Assembly: GCA_963699325.1 (NCBI GenBank)
Contig: CAVOTN010000003.1
Location: 154,600 to 218,599, forward strand
Length of the DNA: 64,000 nucleotides
DNA from: an uncultured Solirubrobacterales bacterium
Lineage (GTDB): Bacteria > Actinomycetota > Thermoleophilia > Solirubrobacterales > Solirubrobacteraceae
Direction of reading: 5' to 3'
In this document: in pieces, positions 2,678-48,813 of the stretch
Position numbering within the stretch: the stretch's first letter is position 1
How the letters are laid out: the number at the start of each line of letters is the position of its first letter
Notes under the pieces: generated by a model
What the model was told of the DNA's origin: nothing
The model's input: the letters and a program-made list of their open reading frames with translations, nothing else
Databases searched by the model: none
Position numbers and translations under genes: made by a program

Positions 2678-3899
2678 GTGATCACGACTGAGGGCCTGGC
2701 CGCGCGGCTGCGCGAACTCGAGGACGTCGGCGTCGGTCCGGAGGGCGTATACCGTCTCGCCTGGACCGACGAGGACGCGGCGACGCGCGCCTGGTTCGAG
2801 CGCCAAGCCGCGGATATTGGGCTGCGCGTCGAGCGCGATCCCGCGGGAAACCTGTGGGCCTGCCCGCAGCGCGGACCCACCGTGGTGGGGGATCGGGTCG
2901 CATCTGGACAGCGTGCGCGGCGGCGGCCGGTTCGACGGGCCGCTCGGCGTGGCGTGCGCGTTCGAGGTCGCGGCCGCGGTCGCGCCGGAGGTGGCCGCCG
3001 GCGCGGTCCCGCCCGTCGCCGTTCTCTCGTTCGCCGATGAGGAGGGCGCGCGCTTCAACACGCCGACGTTCGGGAGCAAGGCGTTGAGCGGACGGCTCGA
3101 CCTCCCGGCGGTCCTTGCACGACGCGACGATGCCGGCGTCGCGCTGGCCGACGCGATGCGCTCGGCCGGGGTCGATCCGAACGGGATCGGGGAGGCGCCC
3201 GGATGGCTTTCGAAGCTGGCGGGGTTCATCGAGGTCCACATCGACCAGACGACCGAGCTCGCCCGCGCCGGCGCCCCCGTCGGGCTGGTCAGCGCGCTGG
3301 CCGCGCGGACGCGGCTCGAGGTGCGGCTGCGGGGGCGCGCCGACCATGCCGGGACCACGCCCAGGTCCGAGCGACGTGACGCGCTGTCGGCGGCGGCGCG
3401 CCTGATCGTGGGCGTCGAGGACCTGGTGGGCGACGGTCCGGCGCTCACGATCACAACCTCGCGGATCCTGGCCAGCCCCAACGCGCCGACGACGATCGCC
3501 GCCGAGGTGCGGCTGTGGATCGACGCGCGCGCGCCCGGCGGGTTCGCGGCGATCGACGCGTGGCGCGCTGAGGTGGACGACCTGGCCGCGGCATTGTCGG
3601 CGCGGTCCGGGGTCGAGATCGACCTCTCGGTTGCCTCGCGGAGCGACGCACGCGAGTTCTCGCCGGTGCTCCGGGCCGCGCTGGCGCGCGCGAGCGAGGA
3701 GGTCATCGGCCACGCCGCGCCCGAGGTCGTGTGCTTCGCCGGCCACGACGCCGGCGTCCTGGCCGAGCGCGTCCCGGCGGCAATGCTGCTCGTCCGCAAC
3801 GAGACCGGCGTCAGCCACTCGCCGGCCGAGGACGTCTCGCTCGCGGACGCCGCGGTGGCGGCCCGGGTCGTCGAGCGTGCGCTGAGCGAGCAGACATGA
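2678..3899 (+). CDS. M20 family Zn-dependent amidohydrolase (allantoate/N-carbamoyl amidohydrolase-like); +1 frameshift near 2865-2875
   Basis: N-terminus in ORF 2678 (RLAWT..D.AGN), rest in ORF 2817 (GSHLDS, GRFDG, DEEGARF, EVHIDQ, DHAGTTP, GHDA, SHSPAE). Confidence 0.88.
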
Positions 3900-5048
3900 C
3901 GACACGGGCGCACGCGATTCCCGGGATGCCCAACGCGCACTCGCATGCCTTCCAGCGCGGGCTGCGGGGGCGCGCCGAACGCCCGGGCCCCGCCGGCGGC
4001 GAGGACGACTTCTGGACGTGGCGGACCGAGATGTTCGCGCTCGCCGACACGCTCGATCCCGAGCGGATGCACTCGGTGGCGCTCGAGACGTATGCCGAGA
4101 TGGCCGCAGCGGGGTACTCGGTCGTGGGCGAGTTCCACTACGTCCACCACCAGCCCGACGGCACGCCGTACGCCGAACCGAACGCGATGGCGCACGCCGT
4201 CGCGCAGGCGGCGATCGACGCCGGACTGCCGATCGTGCTGCTCCCGGCCGCGTACAACCGTGGCGGCTGGGACGGCGAGGACCTCCCGCCGGCGCATGGC
4301 CAGCGCCGCTTCTGCGACCCCGACGTCGAGACGTTCTTGGCGCGGGTGGACGCGTTGCGCTCATGGGCGGCGTCGCTGCCTGGCGTCGAGGTGGGGATTG
4401 CCGCCCACAGCGTCCGCGCCGTCCCAGCGTCGTGGCTCGAGGCGATCGCCGAGTACTCAGAGCGCCACCGGATCGTCCGCCACGTCCACGCCCACGAGCA
4501 GCGCCGAGAGCTCGAGGAGTGCCGGGCCGAGCACGGCTGCTCGCCGATTGAGCTGCTCGACCGGACCGGGTTCCTCGGTCCGCGCGCGAATGTGATCCAC
4601 GGGATCCACGTCGCGGACGCCGACATTTCGGCGCTTGCCCGCACCGGAGCGACGGTCGTGTCCTGCCCGACGACAGAGGGGAACCTCGGCGACGGGTACC
4701 TGCCGGCGATGGCGTACGCGGATGCGGGCGTGCCGCTCGCGATCGGCAGCGACTCGCAGGTGCGGATCGATCCGTTCGAGGAGGCGCGAGAGCTCGAGAC
4801 CGGCTCGCGCCGGGAGCGCCAGCTCCGCTCGGGGCTGCTGGCGTCGGTGGGCGACCTGTGGACCGAGCTGTGCCGGAATGGCTACCGGAGCCTCGGCCTC
4901 GCCGCCGAGCTCGAGCTGCCGACGATCGAGATCGACCTCGGCCATTCCGACCTGCGGGGAGTCGAGCCCGGCGGACCTGCCGCTCGCGCTGGTCACGTGC
5001 GCGTCGGCCGCGATCGTGACGCGGGGAGTCGCCGGCCCCGTTCGCTAG
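3896..5048 (+). CDS. hutF: Formimidoylglutamate deiminase; +1 frameshift near 4970
   Basis: PNAHSHAFQR, EFHYVHH, APHS-like AAHSVRAV, HAHEQ, CPTTEGNLGDG, IGSDS; ATGA overlap with upstream gene; C-terminus continues in ORF ending 5048. Confidence 0.88.
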
Positions 5049-31705: not shown

Positions 31706-31936
31706 ATGGTCATGCTTGCCGACACGGCCAGGTTTCGCAGCGATGATCCGGATCCGCTCGTGATCGCGTCGCTCGCCTGCCCGATCTGCCTGCGCAGTGA
31801 CGAGATCGAGTGGCACGCGGCGCTCGACGGCTACGATCCGTCGGTCGAATGCCGATGCCCACGCTGCGAGGAGAGCTGGCGGGTGTACCTGGAGCCGCAG
31901 CAGGCGCTGCGGTTCGCGTTGATGGACCCGTTCTGA
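31706..31936 (+). CDS. Small Cys4 (zinc-ribbon-like) protein
   Basis: 76 aa; CPIC ... CRCPRC. Confidence 0.72.
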   Translation: MVMLADTARFRSDDPDPLVIASLACPICLRSDEIEWHAALDGYDPSVECRCPRCEESWRVYLEPQQALRFALMDPF

Positions 31937-33054
31937 GCCCAGGCTCAGAAGTCGGAATCGACGCGCTCGAGCTGTTCGTCGAGGTGCTGTCGCAGTCCGA
32001 CGGGGGCGAGCCGCTTGGCGCCGCGACCGGCGACGGGTTCTACGACCGGCTGTGCGACGCCGTCTGCCGGCTCGCGCGGATGCGAAGGGCGCTGATCTTC
32101 CGCTACGACAGCGCGGTCCGGCGCGTGCGCGCGGCGGGCGCGCACGGCCTGAACCTCGAGCATTTCGCCAACGCCTACGTGACCGTCGAGTCGGCGCCGA
32201 TCGCGGCCCAGTCGTTGCGCGAGGATCGCGTGATCGAGATCGAAGGGGACATGGCCGGCCAGTTCCCCGAGGAGTACGCGAGCATCTTCCCCGAGCCCGT
32301 CCGGCTGGTGTGCGCGCCGATGGCGGCGGCGGGCCGCGCGATGGGCGTGATCTTCGCCGACCGGCTGCTGACCGAACCGCCACTCGATGCCTCCGAGCGG
32401 CATCTGCTGTGGACGCTTGGCAAGGCCGCGGCGCTCGCCTCGGTCGCCCGGATCGTGGCCAAGCAGGCCGAGGAGGCGCAGCAGCTCGAGCAGCGGATCG
32501 ATCTTGCGCGCGACATCCACGAGGTCGTCATCCAGCGCCTGTTCGGAGTCTCGATGGCGCTCGACGGGGACGGCGATCTGCCGGCGGAGGCCCGCCAGCG
32601 CTGCGCGAGCGAGACCCAGGTGGCGCTCTCGGATCTGCGCACCGCGCTCCAGCGCCCGCTCGGCCGGGCTCCGCGGGCGACGCAGACGACGTTCGTGGCC
32701 GAGATCGAGCGGCTTGCGCGAGTGCACCCGGACCTCGGGGTGACGCTCGAAGCCGGTGGCGAGGGCGATGTGCCGCCCGCGCTCGAGCCGCTGGCGCAGT
32801 CGGTGCTCGCCGAGGCTGTGCGCAACGCCCACAAGCACGCCAACCCGAGCCGGGTGACCGTGCGGATCGCGCGAGACGACGGCGCGTTCGTGCTCGAGGT
32901 CGCCAACGACGGGCTCAGCGGCGGCCGGCACCGCGCCGGCATGGGGCTGCGGCTGGCCGCGCTGGAGGCGCTGCAGAGCGGCGGCGTGGTCGAGTTCGGC
33001 GAGCGCGAGCCCGGCACCTGGCAGGTTCGGCTGGTGGTGCCCGATGCGCTCTGA
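31933..33054 (+). CDS. Soluble GAF-domain histidine kinase (HisKA_3 type); start uncertain, CTG 31933 proposed
   Basis: GAF region; ARDIHEVVIQRLFG H-box; EAVRNAHKHA N-box; GMGL G2 box; no TM segment. Confidence 0.88.
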   Translation: MSPGSEVGIDALELFVEVLSQSDGGEPLGAATGDGFYDRLCDAVCRLARMRRALIFRYDSAVRRVRAAGAHGLNLEHFANAYVTVESAPIAAQSLREDRVIEIEGDMAGQFPEEYASIFPEPVRLVCAPMAAAGRAMGVIFADRLLTEPPLDASERHLLWTLGKAAALASVARIVAKQAEEAQQLEQRIDLARDIHEVVIQRLFGVSMALDGDGDLPAEARQRCASETQVALSDLRTALQRPLGRAPRATQTTFVAEIERLARVHPDLGVTLEAGGEGDVPPALEPLAQSVLAEAVRNAHKHANPSRVTVRIARDDGAFVLEVANDGLSGGRHRAGMGLRLAALEALQSGGVVEFGEREPGTWQVRLVVPDAL

Positions 33055-33058
33055 GCCG

Positions 33059-33139
33059 GCGCTCCGGAGTGGTCCCAGATGACCTCCGACTCTGCGCTCC
33101 GGAGTGGTCCCAGATGACCTCCGACTCCGCGCTCCGGAG
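33059..33139 (+). repeat. 35-bp tandem duplication (2.3 copies) covering RBS and start of the response regulator
   Basis: gcgctccggagtggtcccagatgacctccgactc(t/c) at 33059 and 33094, partial third copy at 33129. Confidence 0.92.
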
Positions 33140-33737
33140 CCCTGAGAAGCTGAGCGTGCTCGTGGTCGACGATCACGACGTCGTGCACTGGGGGATCCGG
33201 CTGATGCTGACCCAGCAGCCGTGGGTCGATCGCTGCCTGAGCGCCCACTCGGGCGAGGAGGCGCTCGCGCTGGTCGCACGCTATCGACCGCACGTGGCGC
33301 TGGTCGACCTGTTCATCGGCGAGGAATCGGGTGCGGAGATCTGCGAGCAGCTGCGCGCGGCCGAGCCGATGACTCGGGTGCTGCTGTTCTCGGGCGCCGG
33401 CGAGATCTCGCCCCACGCCGCCCGCGCCGCGGGCGCGTCGGGCTTCGCCTACAAGGACTGGCCGGCGCGGAAGATCGCGAGCGCGGTGCGCCTGGTCGGC
33501 CTCGGCAAGACCGTGTTCGACCATCAGGACCGGCCGGTCGCCATGGGCCTGTCCGACCGCGAGCGCGACGTGCTCAACCTGATGGCCTCGGGCGCCACCA
33601 ACCCCGAGATCGCCGAGCAGCTCCACCTGTCCAAGCACACGGTCAAGGAGCACACGAGCGCGGTGTATCGCAAGCTCGGCGTTCGCAACCGGACCGAGGC
33701 GGTCCAGCGCGGCCAGCGGCTCGGGTTGCTGTCGTAG
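33114..33737 (+). CDS. NarL/LuxR family response regulator
   Basis: VVDDH, VALVDL, YK; LSDRERDVL..MASGATNPEIAEQLHLSKHTVKEH HTH. Confidence 0.95.
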   Translation: MTSDSALRSPEKLSVLVVDDHDVVHWGIRLMLTQQPWVDRCLSAHSGEEALALVARYRPHVALVDLFIGEESGAEICEQLRAAEPMTRVLLFSGAGEISPHAARAAGASGFAYKDWPARKIASAVRLVGLGKTVFDHQDRPVAMGLSDRERDVLNLMASGATNPEIAEQLHLSKHTVKEHTSAVYRKLGVRNRTEAVQRGQRLGLLS

Positions 33738-33780: not shown

Positions 33781-35472
33781 CTGGACGCGGCGCTGAGCGA
33801 GATCGCACGTTTTCTCGCGGGCCGCGCGCCGTTCGACGCGCTCTCGCCCGAGGAGCTCGGGGAGGTCGCGTCGCAGACCGAGATCGAGTTCTACGTGACG
33901 GGCGCCGCGATCCTGACCGAGGACGGTGGACCGGTCACGTTCCTGCGCGTGATCCACTCGGGGGCGGTCGACATCATCCACGACGGGCGGCTACTCGACA
34001 TGCTCGGCGTGGGCGACACGTTCGGTCACGCCGCGATGCTGTCGGGGCTTCCCCCGGGGTTCGAGGCGCGGGCCGCCGAGGACACGCTGTGCTACCGGAT
34101 CCCGGTGAGCGTCGCGCGGCCGTTGTTAGACCGCGTCAGGGAGCGCTCGGTTGAGGTCGTCGGCGGGGCTCCGGAGCACCGGCCGGTCACGCGGTTGCTC
34201 CGTTCCCCGACCGTGCGCTGCGAGCCGATGGAGAGCATCCGCGAGGTCGCGCGGCGGATGACCGATACCGGCGCGAGCTCCGCGATCGTCGACCTGCGCA
34301 GCGGCGGGTTCGGGATCGTGACCGATCGAGACATCCGGACGAAGATCGTCGCAGCGGGCCTGCCGCTGAGCGCGCCGGTGGCGACCGTCATGACCACACC
34401 GGTGTTCACGGTCGGGCCCGACCGGCTCGGCGGCGACGTGCTGTTCGAGCTGCTCGAGCGCGGCATCCGCCACGCGCCGGTCGTCACCGAAACCGGGCAG
34501 CTGGTCGGCGTGATCGAGGACGCCGACCTGTTCCCGGCGCAGTCCCGTTCGTGGTTTGGGGCCCGGCGGTCGATCTCGCGCGCCGGTTCGACCGAGGATT
34601 TGGCCGCGGTGGCGCGGCGTCTGCCCGAGGTGGTCGCGGACCTGCACGCCGCGCGCCTGCGCGCGCCCGAGGTGGTCCGGGTGCTCTCAGCGCTCGTCGA
34701 CGCGCTGACCACGCGGGCGCTCGAGTTGGTCGCGCCGGCGCCGGCGTCGGATGGGCTCGTATGGGTGGCGCTCGGCAGCCAGGCGCGGCGGGAGCTCACG
34801 CCGGCATCGATCGCGCGCGGCGCGGTGGTGTGTCATGAGCCGCCGGCCGAGGAGTGGACGCGCTCGGTGGGGTCGGTGTTGCGCGCGTGTGGGTTCCCGG
34901 GCGAGGTGGTCGCGAGGAGCACCGACGAGTGGAGCCACAGCGACGGCGAGGACGAGCTGTCGCTGTCCGTACTGATCGAACGGAGGGCTCTGTGGGGGAC
35001 ACCGGTCGATCCACTGCCGGCCGCCGACGGGGCTGTCCGCGAGCGGATCATCGCGGCACTGGCGCGGCGAGCGTTGGCTACCGTTCCGCCGACAGGTTTC
35101 GACGCCGACTCCGTGCTCGAGGCGGGCGGCGGGCGCAGCGCTCGGCTGGACATCCGCCGGGACGCGGTGGCGCCGATCGTCGAGCTCGCGCGCTGGGGCT
35201 CGGCGGCCGCCGGCGTGGTCGAGGGTTCGACGCCGGAGCGGCTGCTGGCGGCGGCTTCGAGCGGTGTCCTGAGCGAGGCGGACGGGCGGACGCTCGCCGA
35301 CGCGTTCGAGCTCGCGCTCGAGTTGCGGATCGGCCATCACATGGGGCGGATCGCCGCCGGCCAGCCGCCGGACGACGAGATCGATCCCGCCGAGATCAGC
35401 CCGCTGATGCGCGACCACCTGCGGGATGTGTTCCGGGCGGTGACGACGGTGCAGCGGCGGTTGCGCTCGTGA
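33781..35472 (+). CDS. cNMP-binding/CBS/DUF294 nucleotidyltransferase-like protein, catalytic residues degenerate; CTG start proposed
   Basis: RAPFDAL, GDTFGHAAML (cNMP); GIVTDRDIR, GIRHAPV (CBS); LGSQARRELT; C-terminal DUF294_C-like. Confidence 0.88.
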   Translation: MDAALSEIARFLAGRAPFDALSPEELGEVASQTEIEFYVTGAAILTEDGGPVTFLRVIHSGAVDIIHDGRLLDMLGVGDTFGHAAMLSGLPPGFEARAAEDTLCYRIPVSVARPLLDRVRERSVEVVGGAPEHRPVTRLLRSPTVRCEPMESIREVARRMTDTGASSAIVDLRSGGFGIVTDRDIRTKIVAAGLPLSAPVATVMTTPVFTVGPDRLGGDVLFELLERGIRHAPVVTETGQLVGVIEDADLFPAQSRSWFGARRSISRAGSTEDLAAVARRLPEVVADLHAARLRAPEVVRVLSALVDALTTRALELVAPAPASDGLVWVALGSQARRELTPASIARGAVVCHEPPAEEWTRSVGSVLRACGFPGEVVARSTDEWSHSDGEDELSLSVLIERRALWGTPVDPLPAADGAVRERIIAALARRALATVPPTGFDADSVLEAGGGRSARLDIRRDAVAPIVELARWGSAAAGVVEGSTPERLLAAASSGVLSEADGRTLADAFELALELRIGHHMGRIAAGQPPDDEIDPAEISPLMRDHLRDVFRAVTTVQRRLRS

Positions 35473-36149
35473 GGCTCAGGAGGGCGCCCGAGGGGGTCGC
35501 GGCGGAGTTCGCAGATGCTGCCCCGCCCTCCGATCAGACGCCCTGGCGCGAGGCGCGCTGGTGCGCGCTCGACCTCGAGATGACCGGGCTCGATCCGCGA
35601 CGCGAGGAGATCATCGCGGTCGGGGCGGTCCCGATCGACGATGGTCGGGTCGTGCTCGGCGGCGGGATGTACACGTTGGTGCGCACGACCCGGCGATCGC
35701 AGCACGGAGCGGTGCTCGTCCACAAGCTGCGGGTGCCGGACCTTGCTGACGCGCCGCCTCTGGAGGAGGCGATCGATCGGGTCCTCGAGGCGCTCACCGG
35801 GCGGGTGCCCGTGTTCCACACCGCGGCGATCGAGCGCAGCTTCCTCGAGCGGCAGTTCGGGCGCCGGCGGGTGCAGCTGCCGGCGGTCGCCGACACCGAG
35901 GCGCTCGGGCGGGCGTGGCTGCGCCACCGCGACGGCTCCGCGCCCGAGGGCATCTCGCTCGGGCGGCTCGCCGGCGTGCTCGGGCAGCCGGCGGAGACGC
36001 CGCATCACGCGCTCGGCGACGCGCTCACGACCGCGAAGACGTTCATCGCGCTGGCGAGCTTGCTCGACACGGTGGCGCCGCAGACGGTCGGGTCGCTCGT
36101 GGCCGCGAGCCGGGCGCCGGTGGCGGCAAGGCGCTTTGGGGCGGGATGA
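35469..36149 (+). CDS. DEDD 3'-5' exonuclease (DnaQ-like)
   Basis: ALDLEMTGLD ExoI, FHTAAIERSFL, HHALGDA ExoIII; GTGA overlap. Confidence 0.92.
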   Translation: MRLRRAPEGVAAEFADAAPPSDQTPWREARWCALDLEMTGLDPRREEIIAVGAVPIDDGRVVLGGGMYTLVRTTRRSQHGAVLVHKLRVPDLADAPPLEEAIDRVLEALTGRVPVFHTAAIERSFLERQFGRRRVQLPAVADTEALGRAWLRHRDGSAPEGISLGRLAGVLGQPAETPHHALGDALTTAKTFIALASLLDTVAPQTVGSLVAASRAPVAARRFGAG

Positions 36150-36156
36150 TCCCGCG

Positions 36157-36768
36157 ATGATCTTCTACGAACCCTCGCGGCGGGACCGGGAGCTACTGCC
36201 GCACGATCCGTTCAAGTCGCTGGTCGCCCCCCGCCCGATCGGCTGGATCTCGACGATGAACTCCGACGGGCGGGTCAACCTCGCGCCGTACAGCTTCTTC
36301 AACGCGGTCGCCGAGGGGCCGCACATGCTGGCGTTCTCGAGCCGGGGCGCGAAGGACTCCTCGACGTTCGCCGGCGAGCTCAGCGAGTTCGTCTGGAACC
36401 TGGCGACGTTCGAGCTGCGCGAGCAGATGAACGAGACCTCGGCCCCGCTGCCGCGCGGCGCCAGCGAGTTCTCGCGGGCCGGGCTGGAGATGGCGCCGTC
36501 GCGGCTGGTGGCGCCGCCGCGGGTCGCGGCCAGTCCGTGCGCGATGGAGTGCAAGGTCGTCCACCACCTCGAGCTGCGGGATTTGAGCGGTAATACGTTC
36601 GACCAGCACCTTGTGATCGGTCAGGTCGTCGGCGTGCACCTGGACGAGACCGCGATCGCCGGCGACGCGATCGACACCGCCGCGCTGCGGCCGATCGCGA
36701 GGTGTGGGGGGCCGGCGGACTACACGGTGGTCGAGCGGATCTTCCGGATGACGCGGCCGACGTCGTAG
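36157..36768 (+). CDS. Flavin reductase family protein
   Basis: PRPIGWIST, NLAPYSFFNAV, KDS, EFVWNL, ESP-like ASPCAMEC. Confidence 0.93.
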   Translation: MIFYEPSRRDRELLPHDPFKSLVAPRPIGWISTMNSDGRVNLAPYSFFNAVAEGPHMLAFSSRGAKDSSTFAGELSEFVWNLATFELREQMNETSAPLPRGASEFSRAGLEMAPSRLVAPPRVAASPCAMECKVVHHLELRDLSGNTFDQHLVIGQVVGVHLDETAIAGDAIDTAALRPIARCGGPADYTVVERIFRMTRPTS

Positions 36769-36790
36769 GTGGTCGCCGGCGGGGGTCGGT

Positions 36791-37067
36791 GGCGGGTGTG
36801 GTCGCGGGCGAGGCGCCGCGCGGGGGTCGCCGGCGCAGCCGGGATGGTGCCGCGTCGAGCGGACGGGGTGCATTTCTCGCCAGATCCCACCCACCCGCAG
36901 CGTCCCGGCTACATAAGCGCCTGAGGGACGCTTATATCGCCACGGTCCCGGGGAGGCGCGGGGTTTGGCGACTTTTGCACCCGCGCAGTCGCGGCCCGAG
37001 CATGAACAAGGTCCGCCCGCGCCCCACACCCGCCCGCGACCACACCCGCCGGCGCTACACCCGCCAC
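36791..37067. repeat. Nested palindromic intergenic element (MITE/REPIN-like)
   Basis: Perfect 20-bp IR 36791-36810 / 37031-37050; inner IRs centred on ~36924. Confidence 0.75.
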
Positions 37068-37106
37068 CGGTGGACTTCGCGCCCCCGCCGGCCGTAGGCT
37101 TCCGTC

Positions 37107-37457
37107 GTGATCGTCAGCGAGTCGTTCGTGGTCGCGGACTGGAGCGATCCGGGCACGCATCCGGGCCGGCCGATCGCCGGCCTGCATGTTCACCGCTCCG
37201 ACGACGAGGCGTGGATCGTGCTCAGTGGCACGCTCGGGTTCCAGGTGGATGATGAGCAGCGCGAGGTGCCCGCCGGCGAGTCGATCCTCGTCACCCGGGG
37301 CACGCGCCACTCGTTCTGGAACGCGACGTCGGAGCCGGCGCGCTACCTGCTCGTGATGACCCCGCGGATCTATCGCCTGGTGCAGGAGCTCCACTCGGGC
37401 GAGCGCTCGGACTACGCCCAGATCTTCGAAGAGCACGACTCCGAACTGCTCGAGTGA
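37107..37457 (+). CDS. Cupin domain protein
   Basis: LHVHRSDDEAWIVLSG, GTRHSFWN. Confidence 0.9.
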   Translation: MIVSESFVVADWSDPGTHPGRPIAGLHVHRSDDEAWIVLSGTLGFQVDDEQREVPAGESILVTRGTRHSFWNATSEPARYLLVMTPRIYRLVQELHSGERSDYAQIFEEHDSELLE

Positions 37458-37458
37458 C

Positions 37459-38421
37459 GTGACTCATTTCGGCCCCCCGGATGCGACGGTCGCTCCGCGT
37501 TACACCGGCGTGCGCACGTTCGCCCGTCTGCCGAACGTCGAGCTGCCGCGTGACGACGTCGACGCCGCGGTGATCGGCGTGCCATTCGACACCGCGACCA
37601 GCTTCCGGAGCGGGGCGCGGTTCGGGCCCGAGGCGATCCGCGCCGCTTCGATGCTGCTCCGCCCGTATCACCCGGTGCTCGACGTCGACGTGTTCGACAC
37701 GCTGTCGCTGGTCGACGGCGGCGACCTGCAAATCACACCGGGGAACGCGCTCCACACGACCGAGCAGATCGACGAGCAGCTCCGGCCGCTGCTCGCGGCG
37801 GGGATCGTGCCGCTCGTACTCGGCGGCGATCACTCGATCGTCCTCGGCGAGCTCCGCGCCCAGCACGCCGCGCACGGCCCGGTGGCGCTCGTGCTGCTCG
37901 ACGCCCACGCCGACACCTGGGATCAGTACTACGGCGAGCGCTACTTCCACGGGACCCCGTTCCGCCGCGCGGTCGAGGAGGGGCTCATCGACCCGGCGCG
38001 CTCGCTGCTCGCGGGCATGCGCGGCCCGCTGTACGGGCCCGAGGACCTCGACGTCCCGCGCGAGCTCGGGTTCGAGGTCATCCCCGGACCGGACCTGGTG
38101 GCGATGACGCCCGACCAGTACGGCGACCGCGTCCGCGCCCGGATCGGCGACGGGCCGGCGTACCTGTCGTTCGACATCGACGTGCTCGATCCGGCCTCTG
38201 CGCCCGGAACCGGGACGCCCGAGGTCGCGGGCCTCCAACCGCGCGAGGCGCTCGCGCTCCTGCGCGCGCTCGCTGGGATCGCCTTCTCCGGGTTCGACGT
38301 GGTCGAGGTCGCGCCGGCGTACGACTCGCCGGGTCAGATCACCGCGCTCAACGCCGCCGCGGTCGCGTTCGACCTGCTGGCGCTGCTGGCGGTGGCGCGC
38401 AGCCGCGACCGCCGTGCCTAG
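37459..38421 (+). CDS. speB: Agmatinase-like ureohydrolase
   Basis: GARFGPEAIR, GGDHS, DAHADT, HGTPF, SFDIDVLDP, APGTGTPE; exact substrate uncertain. Confidence 0.85.
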   Translation: MTHFGPPDATVAPRYTGVRTFARLPNVELPRDDVDAAVIGVPFDTATSFRSGARFGPEAIRAASMLLRPYHPVLDVDVFDTLSLVDGGDLQITPGNALHTTEQIDEQLRPLLAAGIVPLVLGGDHSIVLGELRAQHAAHGPVALVLLDAHADTWDQYYGERYFHGTPFRRAVEEGLIDPARSLLAGMRGPLYGPEDLDVPRELGFEVIPGPDLVAMTPDQYGDRVRARIGDGPAYLSFDIDVLDPASAPGTGTPEVAGLQPREALALLRALAGIAFSGFDVVEVAPAYDSPGQITALNAAAVAFDLLALLAVARSRDRRA

Positions 38422-38490
38422 GCGTTAGAGACTCGTCGAACCTCAGCCCCAGGGGCTCATGGCAGAGCCGGGTTCGGCCGACGCAACCAT

Positions 38491-40536
38491 GTGATGTCAG
38501 GGAGACGCTCGCCGTTCGTCAGCGACGCCCGGCGCGAGGGCTCGCCGGGGCGGTCGAGGACGCGGCGGGTCGCGCTCTGCGTGCTCGCGCTGCTCATCGC
38601 CTGGGCGATCACCTACGAGCTCGCGTTTACCGTGTTTACCAGCCTGCTCGACGCCGTCCCATTTCACGGGATCGCGCCCGACGTGGTCTTCCTGATCGCC
38701 GCGTCGCTGCTGATCTGGCGGGGCCTCGGCGGCGAACGCGGCTGGATGCTCATCGGGATCGGCGCGGTGTGCTGGGCTTCGGGCGACATCTACTGGACGC
38801 TCGCGCTCGGGAACCTCGCCAATCCACCGGTGCCGTCCCTGGCGGATGCCGGCTACCTGTCGTTCTGCCCGTTCGCGTTCGCGGGGATCCTGGCGCTCGT
38901 GCGACAGCGGATGTCCGGCGTGCCGAAGGCGCTCGCGGCGGACTCGGCCGCGGCCACCCTCGCGGTCGGCGCACTCGGCGCGGCGCTCGTGGTCCAGCCG
39001 GTTGTCGCCCACGCCGACGGCGGAGTCCTCGCAGTCGCCACAAACCTCGCCTACCCGATCTTCGACCTGCTGCTGCTCGGCCTGATCGTCGGCGCGACCG
39101 CGCTCGGCAACTGGCGCCTGAACCGGACGTGGGTGCTGCTCGGCGCGTCGGTGCTCGCGTTCTGGATCGCCGACAGCGTGTACGTCGTCGCCGACGCCAC
39201 CAACACGTACACCCAGAACGACTGGTACAACGCGCTGTGGTACTGGTCGCCGATACTCGCCGCGTCGGCGGGGTGGCTGCCACGCCGCGTGTCGGTGCCC
39301 GCGCCCGGACGGGTCAGCGCGCGCGGGATCGTCATGCCAGTGGCGTTCGCGTCGGTCGCAATCGGCATCCTCGTCTGGTCGAGCTTCGATCGGGTTGGCG
39401 TGATCGCGATCGTCCTGGCCACGGGCTCGCTGTCGGTGGTCATGGGCCGTCTCGTACTGACGTGGCGAGAGAACGCGCGCCTGCTTCGTGCGAGCCAGGG
39501 GGAGGCGCTGGCCGACGCGCTGACCGGCCTCGGGAATCGGCGCGCGCTGCTTGCCGATCTGGAGCGGCGACTTTCGACGACGCGCGACGACGGCTCGCTC
39601 ACGCTCGTGCTGTTCGACCTCGACGGCTTCAAGCAGTACAACGACAACTTCGGGCACCCGTCGGGGGACGCCCTGCTGCGCCGCCTCGGAGCGAAGCTCG
39701 AGTCTCACCTCGGCGCCACCGGTCGTGTGTACCGGATCGGGGGCGATGAGTTCTGCGCTCTGATCGACGCCCCGCCGGGCGCTTCGGACGCTCACGTGCA
39801 GGCCGCGGCGCGAACGTTGTTCGAGCAGGGAGACGGCTTCACGATCGGGTGCTCGCACGGTGCCGTGCTCCTGCCGACCGAAGCGCAGGATGCGAGTGCC
39901 GCGCTCACGATCGCCGACCAGCGGATGTACGCAGACAAGCGGGTCGGCCGGGTGTCCGCGGCGCAGCAGTCAAAGGATGTGCTACTGCGCGCCGTCGCCG
40001 AGCGAAACCGCGAGCTGGGCGCGCACGGGCGCGATGTCGCTGAGTTGGCCGCCGCCGTCGCCGCCGGGTTCTCCCTGCCACCGGACGAGATCGAGATGAT
40101 CCGCCATGCCGCGGAGCTCCACGATGTCGGCAAGGTGGCGGTGCCAGACGCGATCCTGGACAAGCCGGCTGCGCTCGACGAGACCGAGTGGGCCTTCATC
40201 CACGAGCACACGATGATCGGCGAGAAGATAATCGGGGCTGCGCCCGATCTCGCGCGCGTGGCCAAGCTGGTCCGCTCGAGCCACGAGAACTTCGACGGGA
40301 CCGGCTATCCCGATCGGCTCGCACGCCGAGAGATCCCCCTCGGCGCGCGGATCATCGCGGTGTGCGACGCGTTCGATGCGATGACGACCGACCGGCCCTA
40401 CCGCGCGGCGATGGACGAGGAAAGCGCGCTGGCCGAGCTCGTGCGCTGTGCCGGCACCCAGTTCGACCCGGACGTCGTCGAGCGCTTCTGCGCGGCACTG
40501 GCGCCGGAGCGAACAACTCTGCCGCGCGCGGCGTAA
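38491..40536 (+). CDS. Membrane-bound GGDEF + HD-GYP protein
   Basis: Multiple N-terminal TMs; DLDGFK, YRIGGDEF; LHDVGK, HENFDGTGYP, VCDAFDAMT.DRPYR. Confidence 0.94.
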   Translation: MMSGRRSPFVSDARREGSPGRSRTRRVALCVLALLIAWAITYELAFTVFTSLLDAVPFHGIAPDVVFLIAASLLIWRGLGGERGWMLIGIGAVCWASGDIYWTLALGNLANPPVPSLADAGYLSFCPFAFAGILALVRQRMSGVPKALAADSAAATLAVGALGAALVVQPVVAHADGGVLAVATNLAYPIFDLLLLGLIVGATALGNWRLNRTWVLLGASVLAFWIADSVYVVADATNTYTQNDWYNALWYWSPILAASAGWLPRRVSVPAPGRVSARGIVMPVAFASVAIGILVWSSFDRVGVIAIVLATGSLSVVMGRLVLTWRENARLLRASQGEALADALTGLGNRRALLADLERRLSTTRDDGSLTLVLFDLDGFKQYNDNFGHPSGDALLRRLGAKLESHLGATGRVYRIGGDEFCALIDAPPGASDAHVQAAARTLFEQGDGFTIGCSHGAVLLPTEAQDASAALTIADQRMYADKRVGRVSAAQQSKDVLLRAVAERNRELGAHGRDVAELAAAVAAGFSLPPDEIEMIRHAAELHDVGKVAVPDAILDKPAALDETEWAFIHEHTMIGEKIIGAAPDLARVAKLVRSSHENFDGTGYPDRLARREIPLGARIIAVCDAFDAMTTDRPYRAAMDEESALAELVRCAGTQFDPDVVERFCAALAPERTTLPRAA

Positions 40537-41543: not shown

Positions 41544-42941
41544 TCAGAACAGCTGCAGGTAGCGGTCGAGCTCCCACTGGGTGATCTGCTCGTGCGCGGC
41601 CTGCCACTCGCGGCGCTTGACCTTCGCGAAGTAATCGACGTAATCGCCGTCGCGGGTCTTGCCGAACGCGGCGCGGAGCACATCGTTCTTCTCGAGTTCG
41701 CGGACGGCGTCGAGCAGGTTGGCCGGGAGCAGCTCGATTCCGGCCGCCTCGCGCTCATCGGGATGCATCTCGTACAGGTTGGCCGAGTTCGGCTCGCCGG
41801 CGTCGAGCTCGCGGTCGATGCCGTCGAGTCCGGACGCGAGCATCGCGGTCGCCGCGAGGTATGGGTTGCACGAGCCGTCGACCGTCCGATCCTCGATCCG
41901 GCCGGCGTCAGGAATCCGGAGCATCTGCGTGCGATTGTTGTAGCCGTAGCTCACGTACGCCGGCGCCCAGGTCGCGCCGCTCGTCGGCGCGCCCACGACG
42001 AGGCGCTTGTACGAGTTCACCGTCGGGGCGGTGACCGCGATGTAGGCCTTGGCGTTGGCCTTCAGCCCGCCGATGAACTGGTACGCGAGCTCGGATAGGC
42101 CAAGGCCGCGGGGATCATCCGCAGCGTCGCGCTCGAACACGTTCTCACCGTTCGACCACAGGCTGACGTGGAAATGGCAGCCGTTCCCGGTCAGGTTCGC
42201 GAACGGCTTGGGCATGAACGTGGCGATCAGCCCGCGCTGCTGCGCCAGCGACTCGACCATGTAGCGGTAGAACACAGCCCGGTCGCAGGTCGTCAGCGCG
42301 TCGTCGAACTGGAAGTTCTGCTCGAACTGACCATTCGCGTCCTCATGGTCGGTGGCGTAGTTGTCCCACCCAAGCCCGGTCACGGCCTTTGAGACCTGCG
42401 AGACGAAGTCGAGGTTGCGGGTCAGCGCGCGCATGTCGTAGCAGGGCAGGTCGAGGGTGTCGAGCTTGTCGGCGACCTCGATCCCGCCGTCCTCAGTGCG
42501 GCGGACCAGGAAGTACTCGAGCTCGGCGCCCATCTTCAGCTCGAACCCGAGCTCCTTGGCTCGCGCGAGCTGATTGCGCAGGATCGTGCGCGGACAGAAG
42601 GGCCATGGCTCGCCCTCGACCGTCACGTCGCACGCGAATCGCGCCACGTTCGGCTGCCACGGCAGGATCGTCAGCGTGGTCGGGTCGGGGATCGCGATCA
42701 TGTCCGGATCGTGGGGGCCCTGGCCGATGTCGCCGGCGGCGAACCCGGCGAAGCCCGCGCCGTCGGTGAGCAGGTCGTCGATGTGGTGCGCCGGGACGAG
42801 CTTGGCGCTCGGTTTGCCGTGCATGTCCACGAACTGAGCGAACAGGAACTCGATCTGTCGCTCGCTGATGATTCGCCGGACGTCGTCGGCGTCGCTGACC
42901 TGCGGCGCGGGCTCGATGCGGTGCTCAGTTGAGATAGCCAT
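41544..42941 (-). CDS. gmaS: Type III glutamine synthetase-like enzyme, probable gamma-glutamylmethylamide synthetase (GlnT/GmaS)
   Basis: QFVDMHG, GAGFAGFA, DHEDANGQFEQNF, FMPKPF..LTGNGCH, PTVNSYKR, NRTQMLRIP; linked to mgsABC-like genes. Confidence 0.82.
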   Translation of the reverse strand: MAISTEHRIEPAPQVSDADDVRRIISERQIEFLFAQFVDMHGKPSAKLVPAHHIDDLLTDGAGFAGFAAGDIGQGPHDPDMIAIPDPTTLTILPWQPNVARFACDVTVEGEPWPFCPRTILRNQLARAKELGFELKMGAELEYFLVRRTEDGGIEVADKLDTLDLPCYDMRALTRNLDFVSQVSKAVTGLGWDNYATDHEDANGQFEQNFQFDDALTTCDRAVFYRYMVESLAQQRGLIATFMPKPFANLTGNGCHFHVSLWSNGENVFERDAADDPRGLGLSELAYQFIGGLKANAKAYIAVTAPTVNSYKRLVVGAPTSGATWAPAYVSYGYNNRTQMLRIPDAGRIEDRTVDGSCNPYLAATAMLASGLDGIDRELDAGEPNSANLYEMHPDEREAAGIELLPANLLDAVRELEKNDVLRAAFGKTRDGDYVDYFAKVKRREWQAAHEQITQWELDRYLQLF

Positions 42942-43008
42942 GTGCGAGGTATATCCCGACCGAAGGGCATCCGGCAATGGCCGCAGGCACCGGGTATCGG
43001 GGGCTAGG

Positions 43009-43025
43009 ATGTGCTCTTCGCACAT
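43009..43025. promoter_or_regulatory. Palindrome, candidate operator of the GAF-PucR regulator
   Basis: ATGTGC-tcttc-GCACAT; second TCGCACAT half-site at 42940-42947 (minus strand). Confidence 0.5.
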
Positions 43026-43038
43026 AGGAGGCCAATCT

Positions 43039-44814
43039 CTGTCGACAACCTCTGAGGCCCGCGGGCTTCACGAAGAGAACCGCACCCTTTACCGGGTGAT
43101 CAACCTCGTCGGCTCGTCGATCGAGCTCGGCCCGATGCTGCAGGGGATCGTCGACCTCGCCACCGAGGCGACCGGTTGCCACGCGTGCTTCATCTACCTG
43201 GTCGAGGGCGGGGTGCTCACGATCCGGGCCGCCTCGCCGGTGTATGCCGGGGCGGTCGGTGTCGTACAGATGCGGCTCGACGAGGGGCTGACCGGATGGG
43301 TCGCCAGGCACCGCCAGCCCGAGTTCATCCGCGACAACGCGATGGCCGACCCGCGGATGAAGTTCATTCCTGTGCTCGAGGAGGAGCGCTTCCAGTCGAT
43401 GGTGGCTGTCCCGATTCTCTCCCGCGCGGGTGAGACGATCGGCGTGATCGTGCTCCACACCGAGGCGCCGCGCGAGTTCACCGAGGACACGCTCAAACTG
43501 CTCGTCCACATCGCGTCCCTGGTGTCGGGCGCGATCGAGAACGCGCAGCTGTACGACCAGCAGCGCCGCCGGGTCGACGCGCTGACGAGCCTGTCCGGAC
43601 TCGCGCAGGAGGTCGCGACCGCGGGCGACGCCGCGGAGATCGGGCGCGCGGTCACGCTCGGGATGCGGCGGCTGCTCGGGGCCGAGGTGTGCCAGCTCTA
43701 CCGGTTGGACCGCGACGGCAGCGGCCTCCAGCTCCTGTTCTCCTCGCCGGAGACGACGGCGGAGCTCGAGGCCCTGTCGGCGACGGCGCTACTCCTGGCG
43801 GCGTTTGACGCGAGCGCGTCGCGACCGCCGGCGCGAACGTTGTGGCCTGGCCTCGATGTCGCCGATCTGCTGATGACCCCGCTCGTGTCGGGTGGCGAGC
43901 GGCTCGGGCTGCTGTGCGCCGGCGCGCCGCCACGACGGCCGTTCACCGGCGAGGACACGGAGATGGCGCGCGCAATCGCGCATCTGGCGGCGATCGCGAT
44001 CAAGCGGGCGGAGCTGATCGAGGGGCTGACCAATGCGAACACGGTCAAGGACCTGTTCGAGGCGCTCGCCGCGGGCGCGACGACGTTTGCGGCCACGAAG
44101 GCGGGGGAGGTTCGTTGCGACCTGTCGCGGCCGTACGTGATGCTGTGCGCCGAGCCGGCCGCCGGCCGTGAGCAGGGCTCGGGCGAGTGGCGGGCCGCGG
44201 CCGAGGTGCTCGGCAGGGATCTGTCCGAGCTCGCGCCGCGCGCCGCGGTCGAGGCCGGTCCGGGCCCGGTGCGGGCGGTGCTGTCGTTGGGCACCCGCGG
44301 TCCACAACGGATCGAAGAGGTGGTACGGGGGTGCCGCGAGCTCGGCCGGCGTCGCGGCGCCGCGATCGGGCTGAGTGAGCTCCACGAGTCCGCGGCCGAC
44401 TCGGCGCGCGCCTATCGCCAGGCCCTCGACGCGACGATGATCGGGCGCGCGTTGCTCGGCGACGGCGGCGCGATCGGGTATGCCGAGGTGGGCGCGTACC
44501 GGTACCTCGTGCACATCGGCGCCGAGAACGCCCCGCACGATCGCATGCGGGCCGCCGTCGACCGCCTGATCGCGTACGACGCGCGGCGGCGCACATCGCT
44601 GCTCGACACGCTCGAGCGTTATCTGGCCGAGCGGCGGAGCGTGATCGAGTCAGCGCGCGAGCTGTTCATCCACCCGAACACGCTGCGCCAGCGCCTCGGG
44701 CGGATCGAGGAGCTGACCGGCCTGCACCTCGACGAGGACGACCTGCTGTCGCTCGAGCTGGCGATCAAGCTGGCGCGGCTGCACGGCCGTCCGGGGGCAG
44801 CGCGCCTCGGATAG
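43039..44814 (+). CDS. GAF-GAF-PucR/CdaR family transcriptional regulator; CTG 43039 (or ATG 43009) start
   Basis: Two GAF regions; LLDTLERYL, ARELFIHPNTLRQRLGRIEELTG PucR HTH. Confidence 0.92.
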   Translation: MSTTSEARGLHEENRTLYRVINLVGSSIELGPMLQGIVDLATEATGCHACFIYLVEGGVLTIRAASPVYAGAVGVVQMRLDEGLTGWVARHRQPEFIRDNAMADPRMKFIPVLEEERFQSMVAVPILSRAGETIGVIVLHTEAPREFTEDTLKLLVHIASLVSGAIENAQLYDQQRRRVDALTSLSGLAQEVATAGDAAEIGRAVTLGMRRLLGAEVCQLYRLDRDGSGLQLLFSSPETTAELEALSATALLLAAFDASASRPPARTLWPGLDVADLLMTPLVSGGERLGLLCAGAPPRRPFTGEDTEMARAIAHLAAIAIKRAELIEGLTNANTVKDLFEALAAGATTFAATKAGEVRCDLSRPYVMLCAEPAAGREQGSGEWRAAAEVLGRDLSELAPRAAVEAGPGPVRAVLSLGTRGPQRIEEVVRGCRELGRRRGAAIGLSELHESAADSARAYRQALDATMIGRALLGDGGAIGYAEVGAYRYLVHIGAENAPHDRMRAAVDRLIAYDARRRTSLLDTLERYLAERRSVIESARELFIHPNTLRQRLGRIEELTGLHLDEDDLLSLELAIKLARLHGRPGAARLG

Positions 44815-46983: not shown

Positions 46984-48813
46984 ATGGAGCACTTGGACAC
47001 ATTCCTGGCCCGCCACCCTCCGTTCGACGCGCTCGATCCTGACGAGCTCCGCGACCTTGCCGCGGGCGCCCAGGAGCACGCGTACGACACCGGGGAGGCG
47101 GTGCTCGTCGAGGACGGTTTGCCCACGCCCGGGCTGTGGGTGATCGTCACCGGGTCGATGGACATCGTGCACGACGGGGAGCCGATCCAGGTGCTCGAGC
47201 CGGGCGAGTGCTTCGGCCACCCGTCGCTGCTCACCGGTATGGCACCCGCGTTCACCGTGCGTGCGCGCGAGCCTTCGACGTGCGCGCTGTTCGGCGCCGA
47301 GGCGGGGCGGCGAATCCTCGGGACGGAGGCGGGCGCGGCGTACGTCGCGAACTCGATGCGAAAGCGGCTCACGATCGCCGGTCACACGGTGCACGGGCTG
47401 CCGGACGTTGGCACCACGCCGGTGGCGCTGGTTATGAGCCGGGCGGAGTTCTGCGAGCCCGACGAGCCGTTGCGCGCGGCCGTGACACGGCTCGGGCGGG
47501 ACGGGGTCTCGGCGCTGCTGGTCCAGCTCGACGACGGCGCCTTGGGGATCCTGTCCGACGCCTCGATCCGCGCGGCGGTCGCGGTCGACGGCGTCCCGCT
47601 CGACGCGCCGGCGCGCGCGGCAGTCCTGACTCCGGTCGCGACCGTCCCGCCGACCCAGCTCGCGATCGAGGCGACCGTCGAGATGCTCGCGGCCGGGTCA
47701 GAGCACCTGGCGGTGCTCGACGGTGATCGGATCTGCGGCCTGCTGTCCGCCACGGACCTACTCGGCCTCGATACACGCAGCCCGATCGCGCTTCGCCACA
47801 TGCTCCTCGGCGCTCCCGACGAGGACACGCTGGTGCGCGCCGCGGGCGAGATTCCGAAGCTGTTCCTGCTGCTCTCCCGGGCTGGCGTGCTCCCGCGCGA
47901 CCTCGGCCGGGTCCTCAGCCTCCAGCACGACACCGTCGTCGCCCGGCTGATCGACTTCTCGATCTGGAGCCGCGGACCCGCCCCGGTCCCGTGGGCGTGG
48001 CTCGACTTAGGGAGCGCGGCCCGGCGGGAGTTCACGCTTGCCTCGGACCAGGACAACGCCCTCGCTTATGCGTCGGTGGAGCCGGACGCGGTCGAGGCGG
48101 TCGACGGGTACTTCGCGCTGCTCGGCACCGATGTCAACGACGGCCTCGTCAGGTGCGGGATCGGGATCGACAACAACGGCGTGCTCGCCGGCAACCGCCA
48201 GTGGCGGATGTCCAAGGACGCATGGCTGCGGACTTTCGATAGCTGCCTGAACGAGCCCGACGAGTCGCACCTGATCCGGGCCACCGTGTCGTTCGACTTT
48301 CGCCCGACCGCCGGCGGCCTGGCTGTCGCCGCCGAGCTGACCGCGCGGATCCGCGCCGCCCGCCACCACGCGCAGTTCATGCGGCTGATGGCGCGGACCG
48401 CGACCGGCTACCCGGTGGCGCTCGGGTTCCGCGGCCAGCTCGCCACCGGACACGACGGCGATCCCCCCGGGAAGCTCGACCTGAAGCGCGGCGCGATCAT
48501 CCCGCTGGTCAACCTGGTGCGGTTCCACGCGCTGGCGGCCGGCGTGACGATCTCGCCCACGCTCGACCGGATCGAAGCGGTCGCCAGCGTCGGCGAGCTC
48601 GACCGCGCGACGGCGGACGCGCTGCGCGAGGCGTTCGTGGTGATCAACAGCATTCGCTTCGAGCACCATGCGGCCCAGGTTCACGCGGGCGAGACGCCCG
48701 ACAACCTGGTCGATCCCGAGGAGCTCGCGCCGATCGCGCGCACCGACCTGCGCGAGGCGCTCAACGTGGTGCGGCGGGCCCAGAAGCGTATCGGCGCGTG
48801 GTCGCCGCCGTAA
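46984..48813 (+). CDS. cNMP-binding/CBS/DUF294 nucleotidyltransferase (GlnE/GlnD-like fold), intact catalytic motif
   Basis: HPPFDAL, GECFGHPSLL; CBS pair; LGSAARREFTLASDQDNAL; SFDFR; DLKRG. Confidence 0.93.
   Translation: MEHLDTFLARHPPFDALDPDELRDLAAGAQEHAYDTGEAVLVEDGLPTPGLWVIVTGSMDIVHDGEPIQVLEPGECFGHPSLLTGMAPAFTVRAREPSTCALFGAEAGRRILGTEAGAAYVANSMRKRLTIAGHTVHGLPDVGTTPVALVMSRAEFCEPDEPLRAAVTRLGRDGVSALLVQLDDGALGILSDASIRAAVAVDGVPLDAPARAAVLTPVATVPPTQLAIEATVEMLAAGSEHLAVLDGDRICGLLSATDLLGLDTRSPIALRHMLLGAPDEDTLVRAAGEIPKLFLLLSRAGVLPRDLGRVLSLQHDTVVARLIDFSIWSRGPAPVPWAWLDLGSAARREFTLASDQDNALAYASVEPDAVEAVDGYFALLGTDVNDGLVRCGIGIDNNGVLAGNRQWRMSKDAWLRTFDSCLNEPDESHLIRATVSFDFRPTAGGLAVAAELTARIRAARHHAQFMRLMARTATGYPVALGFRGQLATGHDGDPPGKLDLKRGAIIPLVNLVRFHALAAGVTISPTLDRIEAVASVGELDRATADALREAFVVINSIRFEHHAAQVHAGETPDNLVDPEELAPIARTDLREALNVVRRAQKRIGAWSPP

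Follow-up and report, generated by a model that had tools for sequence, protein, structure and literature searches.

The closest described system to the gene pair analysed here is PP_0354/PP_0353 of Pseudomonas putida KT2440 (equivalent to PA3233/PA3232), which lies in the MxtR/ErdR (CrbS/CrbR) regulon and whose function was left uncharacterised (PMC9927547; bioRxiv 10.64898/2026.09.07.749794). In random barcode transposon-site sequencing (RB-TnSeq), a COG2905/RNase T gene was cofit with the adjacent symporter, the authors speculating that it is needed for symporter expression (bioRxiv 10.1101/072470). For the DUF294/COG2905 family our literature search found only the Pseudomonas regulon papers, a survey of HEPN domains and the RB-TnSeq note, and it found no paper on DUF294 together with an exonuclease. 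Our pair lies at positions 33781 to 36149 of a 64,000-nucleotide stretch (the window, meaning the whole DNA analysed) of contig CAVOTN010000003.1 from an uncultured Solirubrobacterales bacterium, and consists of a DUF294 protein with putative sensor domains (gene A) followed by a DnaQ/PolC-type exonuclease (gene B).

The pair shares with PP_0354/PP_0353 its two-gene architecture, its domain order and its nearest exonuclease models (PRK09146/PRK09145), but differs in that gene A lacks the catalytic DxD motif and part of the transferase core, and in that two intact paralogs are encoded in the same genome or gene island. The association of the Pseudomonas pair with acs/actP and CrbS/R (MxtR/ErdR) is not found here, where the neighbours are instead a type III glutamine synthetase (GS-III)-like gene, a PucR-type regulator, an APC permease, mgsABC and a NarL-type two-component system. 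From the comparisons below we lean, with a little over even confidence, towards gene A being a conserved pseudo-enzyme, a ligand-sensing and non-catalytic partner of a DEEDh exonuclease, with transferase activity supplied in trans. Gene A would then resemble pseudo-enzyme regulatory subunits such as pseudokinases and DivL, in which the fold is likewise kept, the catalytic residues are lost, purifying selection acts and the protein is obligately tied to an active enzyme; it differs from these in that its partner has a different fold and that intact paralogs are encoded nearby. The features of the pair, and the intact paralog used for comparison, are as follows.

33781..35472, + strand: gene A, cyclic nucleotide (cNMP)-like/CBS x2/DUF294/DUF294_C protein of 563 aa, without the catalytic DxD (Pfam, translation)
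33907..34131, + strand: cNMP-binding-like domain, residues 43-117 (PF00027, 34 bits; the Foldseek matches are cyclic nucleotide-binding (CNB) domains)
34189..34539, + strand: CBS pair, approximately residues 137-253 (PF00571 in two stretches; PDB matches to CBS-pair proteins)
34618..34980, + strand: shortened nucleotidyltransferase core, ending at VLIERR (truncated Pfam DUF294 match, alignment deletions)
34771..34824, + strand: pol-beta motif remnant LGSQARRELTPASIARGA, with G-S kept and DxD replaced by I-A-R (alignment)
35044..35466, + strand: DUF294_C helical (KNTase_C/HEPN-like) domain, with LDIRRD in place of LDLKRG (PF10335, 107.8 bits)
35469..36149, + strand: gene B, DnaQ/PolC-type 3'-5' exonuclease of 226 aa (Pfam RNase_T; NCBIfam PRK09146/PRK09145-like)
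35469..35472, + strand: GTGA overlap, the GTG start of gene B lying on the TGA stop of gene A (sequence)
46984..48813, + strand: intact DUF294 paralog (SDQDNA, SFDFR, DLKRG), between an APC permease and an mgsA-like amidotransferase

Loss of the catalytic aspartates in gene A

Gene A belongs to the DUF294 family, with all four of the expected domains matched in Pfam (PF03445 at 41.9 bits against a cut-off of 21, PF10335 at 107.8 bits, PF00571 at 57.4 bits and PF00027 at 34 bits), the PF03445 match being limited to profile positions 2–108 of 138. In a pairwise alignment with the paralog at 46984, to which gene A is 31% identical, LGSAARREFTLASDQDNA of the paralog is replaced by LGSQARRELTPASIARGA (SDQDNA to SIARGA), VSFDFR by VLIERR and LDLKRG by LDIRRD, whilst LGS..ARRE is unchanged. 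The transferase core of gene A is shorter by ~26–30 residues owing to four deletions, the DUF294 signature loop is deleted, and of the pol-beta signature hG[GS]x9-13 D-x-[DE] only the G-S is found, with the DxD gone. From its sequence the protein is predicted to have no nucleotidyl-transfer activity. The substitutions in SDQDNA and DLKRG, together with the retained LGS..RRE motif and sensor domains, had been described in the original prediction and are all seen in the alignment and Pfam matches. The accompanying change of SFDFR to LIERR is also real, but it is not the loss of a carboxylate, being a conservative D to E substitution at a position occupied by E or D in all orthologs. Every member of the clade lacking DxD carries D[ILV]R where nearly all intact members carry D[LIV]K, the orthologs of gene A share numerous clade-specific invariant residues, e.g. 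LWGTP and PLP, and many positions of the CNB-like domain are invariant among them.

Origin and maintenance of the loss

Searches of whole genomes from its genus recovered full-length orthologs of gene A in a further 12 (56–85% identity), none of which has DxD. The motif takes the forms SIARGA, STPQGA, SIPRGA, SSAGGA, SVPRCA, SDRRGA, SRARGA and SVRRGG, and all of these orthologs have the core deletions, E or D as the third carboxylate and D[ILV]R for DLK. A scan of one genome per species, using an exonuclease profile with clade-specific patterns that returned close relatives only, added 80 further loci from metagenome-assembled genomes (MAGs) of Solirubrobacterales/Solirubrobacteraceae, mostly from soil. 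The upstream DUF294 gene lacks DxD in 78 of the 80; in the other two, almost the whole gene has been lost (L070) or the motif falls outside the position window of the scan (L072). Basal members of the clade (P0122 and P0136) also lack DxD, and most of the ~90 loci have an uninterrupted frame of 563 residues, even at identities as low as 50–60%. Altogether the relatives in which the active site is lost span well over 100 related species.

Simple pairwise Nei-Gojobori estimates (synonymous divergence, dS, 0.3–1.1) of the ratio of nonsynonymous to synonymous divergence (dN/dS) among gene A orthologs were 0.14–0.43 overall, 0.09–0.25 in the CNB-like domain and 0.13–0.45 in the remnant core. For the same species pairs the intact paralogs gave 0.13–0.35 overall, with the transferase core among their slowest parts, whereas in the copy without DxD the core has 1.5–3 times the dN of the intact paralogs and the sensor domains are the slowest. 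The ratio is well below 1 in every domain of gene A, and its sensor domains are as constrained as those of the intact paralogs. This pattern indicates that gene A is maintained by selection and that constraint has moved off the former active site. The loss of DxD across ~90 orthologous loci is thus conserved under purifying selection, and retention of DxD by orthologs, named beforehand as the observation that would tell against the prediction, is not what the orthologs show.

Exonuclease homologs at 40–52% identity were found in other genera, families and orders when 301 genomes of the class were searched, and all of their readable upstream DUF294 partners keep DxD (SDVDAG, SDADTG, SDADSA, SDIDCA, SDLDSG, SDIDSG, SDVDSG, TDQDNA and TDQDNG). 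A wider view of the family was taken from ~100 full-length representatives of 50%-identity clusters, obtained by exhaustive search of 1.84 billion proteins, with motifs read by alignment-based extraction. D-x-[DE], the third Asp and DLK are retained in nearly all of these (~95% for DxD); departures are seen in the clade of gene A (P0121, P0122 and P0136) and, as isolated partial losses, in P0193, P0202 and P0203. In a maximum-likelihood tree the sequences lacking DxD form one clade (100/100) among exonuclease-linked intact relatives, beside the C12-type, an intact paralog described below, with the 46984-type in a distant clade. As the distant exonuclease-linked relatives keep DxD, its loss is derived, of single origin, and maintained. 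The three partial losses (DHQHH, PHQDH and DQANA) are in unrelated DUF294 lineages, and erosion of the catalytic site has therefore occurred more than once in the DUF294 family.

Two loci are damaged in different ways. In L070 (CAWJIO010000011.1, ~3700–4650) only the last ~70 codons of the DUF294 gene are left, in a frame running on from the regulator region, and an intact exonuclease lies just downstream of the response regulator. In L052 (CAVSQG010000017.1) there are frameshifts in the DUF294 gene (leaving a 338-aa frame) and in the ExoIII region of the exonuclease, which reflect either decay or assembly error.

The start of gene A is unusual. No in-frame ATG, GTG or TTG was found before 33895, and the apparent start is a CTG at 33781, where the conserved N-terminus begins; the 38 residues upstream of 33895 are highly conserved and homologous to the N-terminus of the paralogs. 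In 60 orthologs the codon aligned with 33781 is CTG in 42, CTC in six, GTG in five and ATG in three, with TTG also occurring, and 26 orthologs, half of the cases with a non-canonical start, have no canonical start farther upstream. In the public annotation the protein is called from 33895, with 525 aa.

The coupled exonuclease

By its sequence, the GTGA overlap is predicted to couple translation of gene B to that of gene A. A GTGA or ATGA overlap is kept in most orthologs, and in the two deepest members of the clade the next gene is also of RNase_T type with a 4-nt overlap. The co-directional order of DUF294 followed by RNase_T is the same where the DUF294 partner is intact. No exonuclease of the genome other than gene B is linked to a DUF294 gene, and the single other RNase_T-family gene has an unrelated context.

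The catalytic residues of gene B are D35-L-E37 in ExoI, H117..E122 in ExoII and H179-H-A-L-G-D184 in ExoIII. The ExoI and ExoIII motifs (D-x-E and H-x4-D) and the RNase_T domain are shared with DnaQ/PolC-type DEDDh exonucleases (2p1j, 1j53 and 2gui), and the expectation that both sets of residues would be retained is upheld by D35, E37, H179 and D184 and by conservation of the motifs. In ExoII gene B differs from these enzymes, having H-x-A-x-x-E and not N-x-x-F-D: Glu122 (in HTAAIERSFL) aligns with the Asp of 2p1j and DnaQ (HNAxFDxxFL), so that the canonical Asp is replaced by another carboxylate. It differs from them also in being a stand-alone protein of 226 aa coupled to a sensor protein. 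Among the scanned loci, ExoI D-L-E is present in 77 of 77 scored, with one of the ~80 missed by the ExoI pattern, and every locus examined, apart from the frameshifted L052, has ExoII H..E and ExoIII HHAL[GA]D. Across the class, exonucleases whose transferase partner is intact have the ExoII Glu too, and D-E-E-D-h is therefore a trait of the DUF294-linked exonucleases; we rejected the D to E change as a sign of exonuclease decay, since Glu is found family-wide. The coronavirus nsp14 exonuclease (ExoN) is likewise described as DEEDh and is active. The dN/dS of the exonuclease is 0.18–0.38.

Intact paralogs

Co-occurrence was counted in 201 genomes of the genus, mostly MAGs and many of them incomplete, and the raw counts take no account of shared ancestry. 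The exonuclease of the pair was found in 105 genomes, the 46984-type paralog in 100 and both in 92 (odds ratio 78), and in the 73 genomes where they share a contig the pair and the 46984-type are a median of 8.6 kb apart, with 69 within 15 kb. The original prediction took the 46984 paralog to be the active writer; it is indeed a conserved neighbour (92 of 105), but it is not the only candidate, as the C12-type is closer to gene A and the 46984-type is lacking from 13 of the 105.

The C12-type is the third DUF294 gene of the genome, on another contig (L147, G000:C12), 47% identical to gene A and with SDVDSA as its motif. In this genome an APC permease and a GMC oxidoreductase lie upstream of it, and no exonuclease or exonuclease remnant was found downstream of it. 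In another genome (G160; L146, G160:C159) the C12-type ortholog has its own overlapping exonuclease, 52% identical to that of our pair, and the genome carries a separate pair lacking DxD as well. An APC-family permease precedes the C12-type in both genomes, with the GMC oxidoreductase between them only in ours (G000). An exonuclease adjoins the C12-type in 8 of 88 genomes that have the DxD-less pair, compared with 17 of 25 that lack it (Fisher p ~1e-8). It follows from these counts that most genomes carry exactly one such exonuclease, and that where it stands behind the copy without DxD the intact sister has usually lost its own. A fourth DUF294 copy in our genome (L148, G000:C10:98069-99913), 59% identical to the C12-type, has frameshifts and in-frame TGA codons and is likely a pseudogene.

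All three paralogs adjoin permease genes. Four genomes have permease, C12-type, DxD-less DUF294 and exonuclease in that order, immediately adjoining the GS-like gene and the rest of the island described below, and the C12-type is directly upstream of the DxD-less gene in 5 of the 80 loci of the species-wide scan. L165 (G345:C1:1509000-1527000) and L166 (G447) have a compact island with all three paralogs within ~12 kb, in the order APC permease, C12-type, DxD-less DUF294, exonuclease, convergent GS-III-like gene, PucR, universal stress protein (USP), APC permease, 46984-type and mgsA.

Neighbourhood and the amine-assimilation island

The neighbouring genes of the pair in the window are as follows.

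31810-33054 and 33114-33737, + strand: soluble GAF histidine kinase and NarL/LuxR-type response regulator, directly upstream of gene A
36160..40536, + strand: lineage-specific insert of flavin-reductase-like, cupin, agmatinase and membrane GGDEF/HD-GYP genes (gene content)
41544..42920, − strand: type III glutamine-synthetase-like gene (NCBIfam TIGR03105, 614.6 bits)
42868..44814, + strand: GAF-PucR/CdaR-type regulator, an island gene that recurs in related loci

The pair is part of a conserved island for amine assimilation made up of the GS-III-like gene, the PucR-type regulator, a permease, USP, mgsABC and one or two intact DUF294 paralogs. Convergent and immediately following the exonuclease in most loci (80 loci, G504, G345 and G447), the GS-III-like gene is the commonest neighbour of the pair; in the window a block of ~5.4 kb (to ~41500) parts the two, part or all of which most relatives lack. 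The complete 3.6-Mb genome G504, a distant one with a basal member of the clade (51% identity), carries in order DAO, the DxD-less DUF294, exonuclease, GS-like gene, PucR, permease with USP, the 46984-type intact DUF294 and the mgsA-like amidotransferase, and its only DUF294 genes are the DxD-less copy and the 46984-type. The pair of histidine kinase and NarL-type regulator is upstream of the DUF294 gene in 49 of 80 related loci, a frequency at which we rejected it as an obligate partner.

An N-L-Y motif in the GS-III-like protein, which we liken by eye to the adenylylation-site motif of GlnA, is invariant in 61 of 61 related neighbours, the residues after it varying. The tyrosine is also present in glutamine synthetase (GS) forms that are not adenylylated, e.g. 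Bacillus GlnA, and for this reason it is not diagnostic and is a lead only. No match to GlnE (PF03710) was found in this 93%-complete genome.

Predicted fold of gene A

A full-length AlphaFold2 (AF2) model of gene A had a mean predicted local distance difference test score (pLDDT) of 77.7, and its fold matches were mostly to CNB and CBS domains. The C-terminal half modelled alone reached a pLDDT of 91.6 and a predicted template-modelling score (pTM) of 0.90, and its best Foldseek matches were the adenylylation domain of E. coli GlnE (3k7d, E 2.7e-6; with 1v4a, TM 0.59–0.64 over the GlnE and DrrA/SidM matches) and the AMPylation domain of DrrA (6yx5, TM 0.64), followed by AadA-type adenylyltransferases. 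The modelled transferase and helical domains thus have a GlnE/DrrA-like fold, and in the model gene A retains the fold of a protein-AMPylating enzyme without its metal ligands. In gene A, as in GlnE and DrrA, a helical substrate-binding domain comes after the pol-beta core, and gene A lies near a GS-family gene. Unlike GlnE, it has no PF03710 match, has a single, catalytically void nucleotidyltransferase-like domain in place of two in tandem, carries N-terminal CNB-like/CBS sensors, and is partnered by a DnaQ-type exonuclease and not by a second domain of nucleotidyltransferase fold that removes the modification.

Possible functions of the pair

On the reading we prefer, of gene A as a sensing pseudo-enzyme, a homolog of GlnE/DrrA fold lost its two metal-binding Asp and part of its core once, in an ancestor of this Solirubrobacteraceae lineage, and would since have been kept as the non-catalytic partner of gene B. 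The two proteins would form a complex whose exonuclease is gated by a ligand binding at the CNB-like or CBS domains, and the intact C12-type and/or 46984-type would supply in trans the nucleotidyl-transfer half of an ancestral transferase-plus-exonuclease module. The exonuclease would undo or break down what those transferases make, which might be a small signalling oligonucleotide, the 3' end of an RNA or a protein carrying a nucleotidyl group, e.g. the GS-like enzyme. A protein mark is favoured by the resemblance to GlnE/DrrA in fold, by the neighbouring GS-like gene and by the lack of GlnE in this genome. In favour of RNA or an oligonucleotide as substrate are the DnaQ type of the nuclease and the published cofitness with a symporter (bioRxiv 10.1101/072470).

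Several observations weigh against this reading. The CNB-like domain lacks the canonical phosphate-binding cassette, reading FGH...GLPPGFEARA where the cassette would be GE...R[ST]A. L070 retains the exonuclease without most of gene A, from which it follows that the exonuclease can persist alone. Among the 105 genomes with the pair 13 lack the 46984-type, some of them good assemblies, and 17 have no detected C12-type, so that, many of these MAGs being incomplete, neither partner in trans appears obligatory. Finally, gene A may have some residual catalytic activity that uses E338 and the third carboxylate, which it still has.

That last possibility can be stated more broadly, as a gene A that is still catalytic by way of alternative carboxylates (E338 of ARRE and the E/D of VLIERR) or by a different chemistry, and it would fit the conserved G-S motif, ARRE and third carboxylate and the retained fold; but the DxD positions are non-acidic and variable (IAR, TPQ, SAG, VPR, RAR) with few members keeping the first Asp, the signature loop of DUF294 is missing, and elsewhere in the family DxD is almost always kept, and we regard it as very unlikely. 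We give still less credence to local decay, in which gene A would be degenerating and kept only because its frame drives translation of the exonuclease. The transferase core evolves 1.5–3 times faster than in the intact paralogs, one locus has gene A deleted, one has frameshifts and the start codon is non-canonical, all as decay would have it. Against this stand the open frame in most of ~90 loci, the low dN/dS in every domain with sensors as constrained as those of the intact paralogs, the confident predicted fold of the remnant core and the clade-specific invariants such as LWGTP and PLP, and local decay is largely refuted by the selection data.

The two remaining alternatives divide over the substrate. 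In one, unlikely in our estimation though it merits serious thought, the pair would be a nucleic-acid module: the ancestral transferase would extend RNA 3' ends or make short linear oligonucleotides, the exonuclease would trim or degrade them in the manner of Orn or RNase T, thereby controlling the neighbouring transporter and assimilation genes, and the copy without DxD would only bind RNA or nucleotide and target the exonuclease. Gene B is closest to the proofreading domains of PolC/DnaQ, a COG2905/RNase T gene is cofit with an adjacent symporter (bioRxiv 10.1101/072470), and all three paralogs stand beside permeases; yet the fold of gene A is nearer to protein AMPylators than to CCA-adding enzymes, poly(A) polymerases or CD-NTases, an RNA-binding domain is absent, and no RNA element came to light, no search having been aimed at one. 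The other, which we hold to be rather improbable, is a refined form of the original prediction, a protein-modification switch in which the intact transferases would AMPylate or UMPylate a protein, most plausibly the GS-III-like one, the exonuclease would hydrolyse the nucleotidyl-Tyr/Ser phosphodiester, and the DxD-less transferase would serve as substrate-recognition adaptor. Here the closeness of the fold to the protein AMPylators GlnE and DrrA, the GS-III-like gene as commonest immediate neighbour, the co-located intact paralogs, the tyrosine of NLY (61 of 61, as a lead only) and the lack of PF03710 in a 93%-complete genome all point the same way. The tyrosine is, as said, not diagnostic, and we know of no DEDDh nuclease that de-nucleotidylates proteins. 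The DUF294-exonuclease pairs of Pseudomonas and Shewanella, moreover, sit with carboxylate transporters and not with GS (PMC9927547; bioRxiv 10.1101/072470).

One could also picture a GlnE-independent, reversible nucleotidylation switch on the GS-III-like enzyme or an amine permease, written by the intact DUF294 proteins and erased by the exonuclease, with the pseudo-transferase as a mark-reading adaptor that brings in the substrate and couples erasure to adenine-nucleotide or cNMP-like signals. We regard this as speculative and doubtful; if true, the exonuclease would be the first protein de-nucleotidylase of nuclease fold.

Pairs of DUF294 and exonuclease genes occur in many bacterial phyla and have no assigned biochemical function, despite the genetics in Pseudomonas and the cofitness from RB-TnSeq. 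The lineage described here is in effect a natural separation-of-function experiment, in which the transferase has been inactivated yet long retained, with an intact exonuclease and with intact paralogs beside it, and candidate targets can be named in the GS-III-like enzyme, the permease and USP. It also defines a clade of pseudo-enzymes whose members annotation pipelines label as nucleotidyltransferase. The retention of the inactivated transferase, the intact exonuclease, the nearby intact paralogs and the tendency of the closest of these to have lost its own exonuclease together argue that transferase and exonuclease can work in trans, and that the scaffold of sensor and helical domains has a role beyond catalysis, most simply that of controlling or targeting the exonuclease.

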